Shown here: piece by piece, positions 34,317 to 37,282 of the stretch
Numbering within the stretch: position 1 is the first letter of the stretch
How the letters are laid out: every line of letters begins with the position of its first letter
Assembly: GCA_050012475.1 (NCBI GenBank)
Contig: JBEKHC010000024.1
Location: 1 to 53,747, forward strand
Origin: Candidatus Velthaea sp.
GTDB taxonomy: Bacteria > Vulcanimicrobiota > Vulcanimicrobiia > Vulcanimicrobiales > Vulcanimicrobiaceae
Direction: 5' to 3'
Length of the DNA stretch: 53,747 nt
Made by a program: the position numbers and the translations under genes
The notes under the pieces: model-generated
Database searches by the model: none
Seen by the model: only the letters and a program-made list of their open reading frames with translations
Told to the model about the DNA's origin: nothing

Positions 34317-35147
34317 TTACCCGGTCGTTACGGGTGCGGGCGGCGGAGCCGAGGGAACCGGCGTGTGAATCGCTGCGGGCAGCGCCCCCAGCGCGCCGAC
34401 GAGCGCGAACGCTTCGTGCACGGCGCGAACGATCAGCGGCGGGACGAATTCGACAAACGCGGTCCCTACGGCCAGCACCGTCACGGTGCCGCCGGCGACC
34501 AGAAACGGCAGGGCGCCCAAACCGATGAGCAGCAGCCAGCCCACCAGCGGCGAGAACGCCCGCAGCGGGCTGTGGGCGACGACCGTTCCGCCGAAGAGGT
34601 CGCCCAGCCGCCGGTGGCCGGGCAGCAACGCCAGGATCCAGCCGATCACCAGAAAATCGACCGGCCGCAGCAGATTGCGGACGAACGCCCGGCCGAAGCC
34701 GACGATCCGGTGCTTGGGCGCGTACACGTGGAGCGAGAAGGCGAGTTTGCCCAGCGTCGTCCCCAGGATCGCCTCGAAAAGCCACAGATAGAGCAGCGCG
34801 ATCGCCAGCCCCATCCCCAAGGTGGCATCGAAGCCGCCTTCACTATTGTTGGGCAGCCCGGTAAACGGGTTGATCGCGATGAGACCGTAAAGCAGCATCG
34901 TCGCTACGCTGGTCACGAGGATCAGATCGAGCGCGAACGCCAGAAAGCGGCGCAGCGCATAGCCGAACGGGTTACCGAAGACATACGTGACGCGCGCCGC
35001 GTCGGGCGGTGGAATGAAGGGCACCTGCCGCGAGAACGGCTGCGGCGGAATCGGCTGGGGCGGGAGATACGCCGGCGCGAGCCCGCCCGGCGACGCCTCG
35101 ATCCGCGGCATCGCTACGGTCGGCTCGAGCCCGTCATGCTCGTTCAT
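34317..35147 (-). CDS. RDD family membrane protein
   Basis: RRFLAFALD, GTTLGK, RNLLRPVD and RRLGDLFGGTVV motifs. Start at MNEHDG. Confidence 0.85.
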   Translation of the reverse strand: MNEHDGLEPTVAMPRIEASPGGLAPAYLPPQPIPPQPFSRQVPFIPPPDAARVTYVFGNPFGYALRRFLAFALDLILVTSVATMLLYGLIAINPFTGLPNNSEGGFDATLGMGLAIALLYLWLFEAILGTTLGKLAFSLHVYAPKHRIVGFGRAFVRNLLRPVDFLVIGWILALLPGHRRLGDLFGGTVVAHSPLRAFSPLVGWLLLIGLGALPFLVAGGTVTVLAVGTAFVEFVPPLIVRAVHEAFALVGALGALPAAIHTPVPSAPPPAPVTTG

Positions 35148-35181
35148 GAACCAAGCGTACCCGTTTTCGCACGCGGAACCC

Positions 35182-35211
35182 TTGACGAGGGCTCGGCGCG
35201 GGTGGTACCTT
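35182..35211 (+). promoter_or_regulatory. Sigma70-type promoter for the metY leader
   Basis: TTGACG-18 nt-TACCTT with an extended -10 TG. Predicted +1 coincides with GTG at 35218. Confidence 0.7.
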
Positions 35212-35217
35212 CGCAGC

Positions 35218-35289
35218 GTGAACCGCCTTGCCGGACTCTGTCCGACCATGATGACGCCGATGCTCTGCCTCCCGCGAGAGGTCGTATAG
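35218..35289 (+). CDS. Putative leaderless Met/Cys-rich attenuator leader peptide MNRLAGLCPTMMTPMLCLPREVV
   Basis: 23 codons including 3 internal ATG and 2 Cys codons, directly upstream of metY. The last codons overlap the 5' arm of an antiterminator. Confidence 0.75.
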   Translation: MNRLAGLCPTMMTPMLCLPREVV

Positions 35290-35338
35290 CCGGTAGTCGC
35301 GCGCTCGAAGCAGTTCGACCCGAACGTACGGCCCTCGC
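35274..35338 (+). promoter_or_regulatory. Antiterminator helix of the metY attenuator
   Basis: GCGAG(A)GGTCGTA (35274-35286) pairs with TACGGCCCTCGC (35327-35338): 12 bp, one bulge, one G-U. It sequesters the terminator 5' arm. Confidence 0.72.
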
Positions 35339-35361
35339 CTCACCGGCGGGGTTCTTTTTTT
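35330..35361 (+). terminator. Attenuator intrinsic terminator upstream of metY
   Basis: GGCCC(T)CGCC-TCACC-GGCGGGGTT followed by C and T7, ending 14 nt before the metY ATG. Confidence 0.8.
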
Positions 35362-35375
35362 CTTGAAAGGCCACG

Positions 35376-36698
35376 ATGAGCTCTCCTATCGATAATGAGG
35401 CGTATCGTTTCGACACGGTCGCCATTCACGGCGCACACGGCGGCGATCCGACGACGAAAGCCCGCGCCATTCCGATTTACCAAACGACGTCCTACAACTT
35501 CGACGATACGGATCACGCCGCGCGGCTGTTCGCGCTCGAACAGTTCGGCAACATCTACACCCGGATCATGAACCCGACCACCGACGTGCTCGAACAGCGG
35601 CTTGCGCAGCTCGAGAAAGGCGTCGCGGGGCTGGCCGTGGCCAGCGGCCAGGCCGCCGTCGTCTATTCGCTGCTCAACCTCGTGCGCGCCGGCGACCATC
35701 TCGTGAGTTCGGCGTCGCTCTACGGCGGCACGTACAACGCCTTCACGCATACGCTGCCGCGCTTCGGCGTCGACGTGACCCTGGTCGACCCCGGCGATCT
35801 CGACAATTACCGGCGCGCGATCCGGCCCAACACCAAAGCCGTCTTCGCCGAATCGATCGGCAATCCGAAGATCGACGTGCTCGACGTCGAGGGCGTGGCC
35901 AAAGTTGCGCACGAGAGCGGCGTGCCGCTCGTCGTCGACAACACGCTGGCCACCCCGTTTTTGCTCCGGCCAATCGAATGGGGCGCCGACGTGGTCGTCC
36001 ATTCGGCAACCAAATTCATCGGCGGACACGGCACGACCATCGGCGGCGTCATCGTCGATGCGGGCAAATTCGACTGGAACGCGTCGGGCCGCTTCGCCTC
36101 GTTCAACGAGCCCGATCCCTCGTATCATGGCGTCCGTTACGTCGAAGCGTTCGGCAACCTGGCGTACATCATCAAGACCCGGGTGCAGTTGCTGCGCGAC
36201 CTGGGCGCGGCGCTTTCACCGTTCAATGCCTGGCTGCTCTTACAAGGGCTCGAAACACTGGCGCTGCGCATCGAACGCCACTCCGCCAACGCCCTTAAGG
36301 TAGCGCAATTCCTGGAGTCGCGGCCGGACGTGGTCTGGGTGTCGTATCCGGGGCTGCCGCGCCATGCTTCGTTCGCGCGGGCTCAAAAGTACCTGCCGGC
36401 GGGTCAAAGCGCGATCCTCACCTTCGGCATCAAAGGCGGCGCCGCCGAGGCGCGGGCGTTCATCGACCGGCTCAAACTCTTCAGCCTGCTGGCCAACGTC
36501 GGCGATGCCAAGTCGCTCGTCATCCACCCGGCATCGACGACGCATCAACAACTGACGATCGAGGAACAGATCGCCAGCGGCGTCAGCGAAGACACGATCC
36601 GGCTCTCAGTCGGCATCGAAAACATCGACGACATCATCGGCGATCTTCGTCAGGCGCTCGACTCGACCGCGACCGAGCCGGCCCCGGCTGCGGTGTAA
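35376..36698 (+). CDS. metY: O-acetylhomoserine sulfhydrylase (aminocarboxypropyltransferase)
   Basis: PIYQTTSY, GNIYTRIMNPT, VVDNT, HSATKFIGGHG (PLP lysine) and LANVGDAKSLVIHPASTTH motifs. RBS GAAAGG. Confidence 0.95.
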   Translation: MSSPIDNEAYRFDTVAIHGAHGGDPTTKARAIPIYQTTSYNFDDTDHAARLFALEQFGNIYTRIMNPTTDVLEQRLAQLEKGVAGLAVASGQAAVVYSLLNLVRAGDHLVSSASLYGGTYNAFTHTLPRFGVDVTLVDPGDLDNYRRAIRPNTKAVFAESIGNPKIDVLDVEGVAKVAHESGVPLVVDNTLATPFLLRPIEWGADVVVHSATKFIGGHGTTIGGVIVDAGKFDWNASGRFASFNEPDPSYHGVRYVEAFGNLAYIIKTRVQLLRDLGAALSPFNAWLLLQGLETLALRIERHSANALKVAQFLESRPDVVWVSYPGLPRHASFARAQKYLPAGQSAILTFGIKGGAAEARAFIDRLKLFSLLANVGDAKSLVIHPASTTHQQLTIEEQIASGVSEDTIRLSVGIENIDDIIGDLRQALDSTATEPAPAAV

Positions 36699-36934
36699 GG
36701 ACGAAGGTGTGGGTTTGCTTCGGCGATCGAGCGGTTCAACCCGCCGGACGCCAAGCAACCCCTCCCCGGCAACCGCAGGCTTTGAGCTGTTTGCTGGCGG
36801 AGACCAAAAGCATGCCACCCTGAGCGGCAATTGTTAGGCTGGCTTACATCCCGAATCGAACGGAGTGCGTTATCCTCGCTACAACGTAACGCACTGGTTG
36901 CCGATGTTTGCTTTCTTCTTTGAAGGGATACCGT

Positions 36935-37282
36935 ATGCTGAAATCTCTCGCTATTGCTTTGGGCTTGTGTACGTTCGCCGGCTCGTCGCTCATCACGAGC
37001 GCTCCGGCTTCCGCGGACGACGCCATGATGAAGATGGATTGTTCGAAGGCCGGGTCGATGATGTCCGACGCCGCGAAGATGGGATCGTCGGCAGCCATGA
37101 CCGGCGACCAGGACAAAGACTATATGATGGTCATGATGGACCACGAAAAAGGCACCATGATGCTCATGAAGGTCGAAGCCGCCTGCGGCAAAGATCCCAA
37201 AATGAAAGCCCAGGCCGCCAAGGATTTAGCCGCTGAGACCGAGCGAATGCAGATGTTCCGCAATCAAGGCACCAGCCAATAG
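36935..37282 (+). CDS. Secreted Met-rich protein, DUF305/CopM-like
   Basis: Signal peptide ending in ASA. 18 Met in 115 aa. MTGDQDKDYMMVMMDHEKG...GKDPKMKAQA resembles a DUF305 half-domain. Confidence 0.7.
   Translation: MLKSLAIALGLCTFAGSSLITSAPASADDAMMKMDCSKAGSMMSDAAKMGSSAAMTGDQDKDYMMVMMDHEKGTMMLMKVEAACGKDPKMKAQAAKDLAAETERMQMFRNQGTSQ

Follow-up and report, generated by a model that had tools for sequence, protein, structure and literature searches.

The 53,747-nucleotide stretch of Candidatus Velthaea sp. DNA that we analysed (the window) carries, just upstream of metY, a short ORF with in-frame Met and Cys codons and two mutually exclusive complementarities, all of which are conserved among relatives. 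The element is real and, in its ORF, terminator, antiterminator and codon spacing, has the sequence-level features of a classical attenuator together with what would be a new amino-acid specificity. It is likely a ribosome-mediated transcription attenuator that would report the charging of tRNA-Met and, less sharply, of tRNA-Cys, and would decide whether RNA polymerase stops before metY. In textbooks, methionine genes exemplify regulation through riboswitches, T-boxes or repressors, not leader peptides. A wider joint claim is on balance favoured: that methionine joins the amino acids sensed by classical attenuation, by way of Met/Cys leaders that four or more phyla have upstream of metY, and that in this lineage about 19 leaderless attenuators, each tuned by its mix of Met and Cys codons, would serve an entire sulfur regulon, covering assimilation, scavenging and transport as well as an extra tRNA-Cys, in which no SAM-I, T-box or MetJ was found.

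The proposed mechanism is conveniently followed from the start of transcription, which we infer to be at or beside the GTG codon that opens the ORF. When methionine is plentiful the ribosome would reach the stop codon at 35287 and cover 35274-35289, leaving the terminator free to form. When Met-tRNA is scarce the ribosome would stall at Met11, Met12 or Met15, positions 35274-35287 would then pair with the 5' arm of the terminator, and metY would be transcribed. Scarcity of cysteine would stall the ribosome at Cys8 with the same antiterminator outcome.

The metY leader and its predicted structures

The predicted promoter (35182-35211, plus strand, as are all features of the leader) consists of a -35 hexamer TTGACG at 35182-35187, an 18-nt spacer and an extended -10 element, TG-G-TACCTT, with its hexamer at 35206-35211. 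A scan with the sigma-70 consensus called no promoter here, and the support for the promoter is its conserved position. The leader ORF (35218-35289) is predicted to be leaderless. Inspection of the sequence places its GTG start at 35218, 6 nt after the -10 hexamer, and 23 codons are followed by a TAG at 35287-35289. The peptide matched no NCBIfam or Pfam family. The candidate control codons (35239-35268) are Cys8 (35239), Met11, Met12 and Met15 (35248, 35251 and 35260) and Cys17 (35266). The last leader codons (35274-35287) make up the 5' strand of the antiterminator, as indicated by folding, shuffles and alignment, and its 3' strand (35326-35338; folding and alignment) overlaps the 5' arm of an intrinsic-terminator-like element (35330-35361; terminator scan, folding and alignment) composed of a hairpin at 35330-35353 and a T7 tract at 35355-35361. 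The predicted metY ribosome-binding site, GAAAGG (35365-35370), lies 3' of the U tract, and neither helix includes it. The presumed regulated gene, metY (35376-36698), begins with ATG at 35376 and encodes an O-acetylhomoserine (possibly also O-acetylserine) sulfhydrylase. Its product scored 683.5 bits against a cut-off of 495.1 for TIGR01326 (O-acetylhomoserine aminocarboxypropyltransferase/cysteine synthase), in agreement with the identity assigned in a preliminary description of this DNA. The coordinates which that description gave were all correct when checked against the sequence, and the terminator it placed before the metY ribosome-binding site was also called by the terminator scan.

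An opposite-strand ORF (34317-35249) would overlap the leader ORF. We preferred a shorter version starting at 35147, as its ATG is kept in two congeners (the third has a different upstream gene). This divergent gene (34317-35147, minus strand) encodes an RDD-domain protein with a proline-rich N-terminus. Directly 3' of metY (36908-37282, plus strand) is a gene for a small, secreted-looking and very Met-rich protein with a weak match to the CopM family. Contigs of four metatranscriptome runs from one study cover parts of metY and its neighbours, with 35164-35373 outside the coverage; as contigs cannot reveal starts, ends or levels, these data say nothing either way about mechanism.

Folding of 35272-35341 (-32.2 kcal/mol; 0 of 200 shuffles as good) gave an antiterminator of 13 predicted pairs between 35274-35287 and 35326-35338 with A35279 bulged. 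The 12-bp helix of the preliminary description is present, although an extra U-G pair brings it to 13 and the bulged A had been missed. Antiterminator and terminator are mutually exclusive in the predicted folds which, with the conservation of both helices, bears out the classical layout proposed earlier. The complete leader folded no better than its shuffles (z -0.82). In the whole-leader fold neither the control codons nor the antiterminator strand paired with the metY ribosome-binding site; only the first codons of the leader paired weakly near it.

Ribosome positions were modelled with a footprint extending 9 nt past the A-site codon, an assumed value. The modelled probability of the terminator of this locus was 0.00-0.03 with the ribosome at Met11 to Met15, 0.44 at Cys17 and 0.76 at the stop codon. 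The modelled cost of freeing the terminator 5' arm followed the same order, being 13.2-17.9 kcal/mol at the Met codons, 10.6 kcal/mol at Cys17 and 4.6 kcal/mol at the stop codon, with shuffle means of about 5-6 kcal/mol. With the ribosome on Met15 the cost was 17.9 kcal/mol versus a shuffle mean of 6.3, and none of 500 shuffles was as high; the matching shuffles per 500 numbered 5 at Met11, 2 at Met12, 21 at Cys17 and 228 at the stop codon. The model is consistent with the earlier proposal that a ribosome stalled at the Met codons or the first Cys would permit the antiterminator and that one reaching the stop codon would remove it, and it adds that the last Cys would permit it only partly.

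When the model was extended to ten loci from four phyla, the predicted protection of the antiterminator dropped in all ten where the Met/Cys cluster ends, either on its last codon or no more than a few codons away. At five of seven other correctly scored loci the terminator was predicted to be favoured at equilibrium whatever the ribosome position, and hence control there would have to be kinetic. (The seven exclude G027 and the Flavobacterium locus, for which the wrong terminator was picked automatically; set arms were used in the ten-locus model.) The leader studied here is predicted to fold into the antiterminator when free of ribosomes, which would make its default state ON, whereas three other loci do not fold in this manner. 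Failed initiation under severe methionine shortage would consequently also switch this copy on.

Conservation of the leader and the weight of its Met codons

Thirty more genomes of the phylum have the same leader; the phylum (Vulcanimicrobiota/Eremiobacterota) is assigned through the nearest titled metY relatives, which are Vulcanimicrobiaceae/Eremiobacteraeota records. We assembled 69 close metY orthologues, the present locus included, of which 29 came from one search and 40 were picked, mostly as top-scoring, from another list. The leader filter demanded a -35/-10 motif, a start codon 4-11 nt later, a length of 10-40 codons and at least two Met/Cys within 8 residues. This strict filter was passed by 30 of the 69 orthologues and by L120 from one further genome to give 31 filtered leaders, and two more leaders were recognized by eye (L211 and L194, the latter truncated where its contig stops). 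The locus of an unpublished genome (L024 of G031) was counted solely as a negative among the 69; the positives are all from published genomes.

Most filter-negative metY loci have a coding region immediately upstream. In two titled loci this region is hom, and both of these hom-metY loci have a Met/Cys leader plus hairpin ahead of hom. Among 20 further operons with a coding region before metY, nine had a leader about 1.2-1.5 kb upstream (reverse strand, 0 of 20), and the remaining 11 may begin beyond the fetched stretch or lack a leader. In three relatives (L007, L208 and L210) a promoter is present with no Met/Cys leader before metY, and metX of the present genome also has no such leader. These three relatives share a second type of 5' region, in which a similar promoter is followed by about 30 nt ending in ATG (minus strand in L007). 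The region of our metX (L239:1366-1500) loosely resembles it, and L007 gave no Rfam match; this type of 5' region is possibly another regulatory motif. A search with a fixed-spacing pattern gave one match in 101 genomes, the pattern being too rigid.

With a promoter motif demanded by the filter itself, all 31 leaders have their start codon 6-9 nt after the -10 hexamer. It is ATG at the same place in all 30 relatives, GTG being found only in the present copy. The leaders have means of 3.1 internal Met and 2.5 Cys residues with a minimum of one each, and of their 652 residues 14.9% are Met and 12.0% Cys, values to be read with the filter's own demand for Met/Cys in mind. We aligned 26 of the 31 leaders, omitting five divergent ones. 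Upstream of the antiterminator core these 26 leaders contain 76 ATG triplets, and every one shares the reading frame of the start codon, with the first internal Met at codon 6 to 14. The antiterminator core itself is read in frame 1 in 15 leaders and in frame 2 in 11, and hence different peptides are encoded by the same RNA strand. The constant frame of the Met codons and the two frames of the antiterminator argue that codons matter upstream and RNA sequence downstream.

Both helices are also conserved in the alignment. For the antiterminator 93.9% of 362 cells were paired, with three pairs having two-sided changes (three cells), and 1 of 500 shuffles was as high. The terminator had 98.5% of 259 cells paired, two pairs with two-sided changes (three such cells) and 0 of 500 shuffles as high. 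Slid controls gave at most 58% (antiterminator) and 65% (terminator) pairing. As the structures were derived from the same, related sequences and the compensatory changes are few, these statistics are supportive rather than proof. Several relatives have weak U tracts, 11 of the 24 scored showing 4-5 T per 9 nt. The comparison with relatives that the preliminary description had proposed as a check thus found the sORF, its Met/Cys codons, the position of its start and both helices to be conserved.

The strongest competitor, although an improbable one, is an attenuator that senses cysteine only, as a report of general sulfur shortage, with the Met codons retained for RNA pairing or incidental. 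In its favor, every metY leader contains at least one Cys, the other 17 leaders of this genome (below) are Cys-rich, and the ATG repeats can pair with the segment after the stop codon. However, this possible 1:2 (anti-antiterminator/pause) helix, which is 83% paired, showed no covariation above shuffles and was not favoured at the present locus (z +1.83), and a pairing or incidental role does not account for the unbroken frame of the ATG triplets at varying distances from the start. The spacing of the codons also speaks for methionine. In the 26 leaders the last Cys ends 5-10 nt before the antiterminator versus 8-19 nt for the last Met, so that a ribosome at the last Cys would partly cover the helix; the greater distance of the last Met favours Met as the main signal.

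Sister leaders in the same genome

A composition-blind scan of the genome found 70 promoter plus sORF sites, 20 of which had a clean terminator. At least two internal Met/Cys codons were present at 18 of these 20 sites versus 18 of the 50 without a terminator (p=4e-5). The genome thus holds at least 18 leaders of this design, the metY leader included, and the 17 others are mostly Cys-rich and stand mainly before sulfur genes. With each target assigned to its best-scoring family, sulfur functions lie behind 14 of the 18 leaders, and the other four have no evident sulfur link. The sulfur targets are metY, cysH-cysC, sulfite reductase, sfnG, cysE, a tRNA-Cys gene plus sulP, and a binding protein plus a second metY, together with transporters (cystine ABC, ssuA, and tauC-, tauA-, ssuC-, metQ- and metN-like genes), several of the transporter calls being below curated cut-offs. 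A nineteenth leader, before a cysK-family gene, was found by eye. The remaining two of the 20 sites are a Leu-containing leader before leuA and a site that looks spurious. In all 18 leaders the modelled antiterminator pairing was stronger before the stop codon than at it, weakly so in four.

Together the 17 other leaders contain 61 Cys and 8 Met codons, a ratio that would make the metY leader the one tuned to Met among sulfur attenuators found throughout the genome. A BLAST search with the metY leader found no paralogue elsewhere in the genome; what the sister leaders have in common is their design rather than their sequence. A scan for Met/Cys sORFs with loose hairpins that took no account of promoters was set aside, as its 599 matches were mostly spurious; in a genome this rich in GC, an abundance of such codons is not specific by itself. 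The four relatives searched have Cys leaders beside sulfite reductase.

The leader before leuA is leaderless and has a terminator (L245:421-570; G000:C21:44920). In a relative (L040:1393-1560) nine consecutive Thr codons and a terminator precede thrC-thrB, and a Met/Cys leader then precedes hom-metY. With Cys codons in sulfur leaders, Leu before leuA and a Thr run before thrC-thrB, the identity of the leader codons tracks the pathway. The match is imperfect: the leaders of the metQ- and metN-like genes are rich in Cys, and in one relative sulfite reductase is preceded by leaders rich in Met.

These counts bear on the possibility, somewhat less likely than cysteine-only sensing, that the translated ORF merely dampens or couples expression through a constitutive or Rho/NusG-assisted terminator with no amino-acid specificity. 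The accessible text of PMC1262725 supplies a non-classical precedent at S. coelicolor ilvB and leuA; at ilvB changes of candidate control codons were without effect, which counts against our attenuation model. The weak U tracts of some relatives also fit dampening. An ORF without amino-acid specificity does not, however, explain the excess of Met/Cys codons at terminator sites or the sulfur genes behind 14 of the 18 leaders.

Arrest of the ribosome by the nascent peptide upon metabolite binding, as in TnaC, could in principle set the RNA switch, with SAM, methionine or cysteine as the ligand. In favor of such arrest, most of the metY leaders contain a Met-Cys dipeptide or something close to it. 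We consider it very unlikely, as the C-terminal half is in different frames among relatives, peptide length and sequence vary widely, and the geometry makes stalling switch the gene on, which is unfit for arrest by an end product.

Several other sites with Cys leaders were seen. An extra tRNA-Cys(GCA) gene, with sulP after it, has a Cys-rich leader and a terminator immediately upstream (L228:4811-5070; G000:C61), and leader, terminator and tRNA-Cys are conserved in a congener (L250:1447-1701; G003). There are three tRNA-Cys genes in the genome, and a second extra copy is located within a sulfur-scavenging island (G000:C39:12600-85800; L221-L225) that contains 13 leaderless Cys-leader attenuator candidates (12 from the scan, one separate). 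Back-to-back divergent Cys leaders precede cysH-cysC and sulfite reductase (L226:5900-6400; G000:C18:25037 and 25178), and G003 has a similar divergent pair.

Known control systems and metY leaders in other phyla

Rfam gave no match at gathering score across the window. At E<=10 over 34900-35500 the sole match scored 11.8 bits; it is on the opposite strand, and the family concerned has a gathering score of 380 bits. The earlier statement that no SAM-I or T-box is visible holds. Across the genome, which is 93.8% complete, SAM-I (RF00162), T-box (RF00230) and MetJ were not found; controls worked, and the same Rfam search recovered SAM-I and SAM-II in other loci. SAM-I and T-box termination switches have the same class of target gene and the same output, premature termination, and differ in the sensor.

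The general scheme of classical attenuators (trp, his, leu, thr, phe and ilv), as given in the accessible parts of bioRxiv 10.1101/834739 and PMC13236596, is a short ORF rich in codons for the end product, an antiterminator overlapping the ORF 3' end and the terminator 5' arm, and a U-tract terminator. The metY element shares all of these. It differs in having Met plus Cys codons, a predicted leaderless ORF, a predicted default ON state at the present locus and at least 18 uses in one genome. The mycobacterial polycysteine sORFs (Ms5788A and kin) resemble it in being leaderless ribosome sensors with sulfur-amino-acid codons at the head of sulfur operons. According to the accessible text of bioRxiv 10.1101/834739 they work at the level of translation, where the Shine-Dalgarno sequence becomes hidden, with no termination reported there, whereas in the metY leader the ribosome-binding site is outside the helices and beyond the U tract and a terminator is present. 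The NCBIfam families NF042933, NF042934 and NF042936 gave no matches to our leader, four relatives or five Cys leaders of this genome; an actinobacterial control leader matched.

Other precedents are partial. As described in the accessible text of PMC8632094, uORFC-8-2 before cysS of Rhodobacterales is likewise predicted to work by ribosome-mediated attenuation and combines an intrinsic terminator with Cys codons in tandem, but it has Cys only and no Met, a tRNA synthetase target and a host of another phylum; the one text supplement of that paper contained no match. The Streptococcus fthC uORF candidate is proposed to respond indirectly to methionine, but via initiator tRNA and the rate of initiation, and the portion of PMC11109978 available describes no internal Met run. 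PMC1262725, in its accessible text, reports actinobacterial Cys leaders without terminators and no RNA element for Met operons, and places methionine under the S-box. We found no Met-sensing leader-peptide attenuator in full-text searches of mostly open literature (including the accessible parts of PMC5314783, PMC2965389, PMC4833913 and PMC13236596), and a prior prediction could lie in subscription journals or supplements.

A methionine attenuator poses a design problem, as its own initiation needs Met-charged initiator tRNA. Natural Met leaders make the separation of elongator and initiator Met supply testable, and the design occurs in named genera that can be cultured, a Flavobacterium record being one example. 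The element would also give a compact Met/Cys biosensor. The work adds regulatory annotation to a soil phylum that has received little study, and it includes a conserved case in which a candidate attenuator immediately precedes a tRNA gene.

Similar Met/Cys leaders stand before metY in Bacteroidota, Acidobacteriota and Gemmatimonadota. We examined 51 loci of the Bacteroidota phylum (30 top-scoring, 20 from lower in the list and the seed). A Met/Cys leader plus terminator preceded metY in 14 (one doubtful) and on the reverse strand in none; 29 of the 30 top-scoring loci were without a leader. Seven of 80 titled loci were positive, two of them doubtfully; among the seven are Ca. Korobacter, two Gemmatimonadota and a Flavobacterium. 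One of eight further Acidobacteriota-class loci passed the filter, and one more was cut by a contig end. The few positives among the Acidobacteriota-class and top Bacteroidota loci indicate that the element is patchy. The leaders of different phyla have no evident sequence similarity that would point to a common origin. At five loci a pair of leaders stands in tandem. In three Bacteroidota-phylum loci (L160, L177 and L180) the leader attenuator is stacked upstream of a separate SAM-I riboswitch before metY.

This stacking, the strict conservation of frame, the Rfam result and the lack of any conserved aptamer-like segment outside the two helices in the aligned leaders make an undescribed metabolite-binding riboswitch (for SAM, for example), with the ORF present by chance, the least credible alternative, even though an expression platform is present and metY elsewhere is often under SAM-I.

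The reverse order was seen in L171, L172 and L178, where a Cys/Met-rich ORF with no clear terminator lies downstream of a SAM-I aptamer before metY. Five Bifidobacteriaceae-titled metY loci (L071, L075, L088, L112 and L115), which have no intrinsic terminator, carry before metY a conserved 8-codon ORF ending in Met-Cys-x together with a complementary segment.
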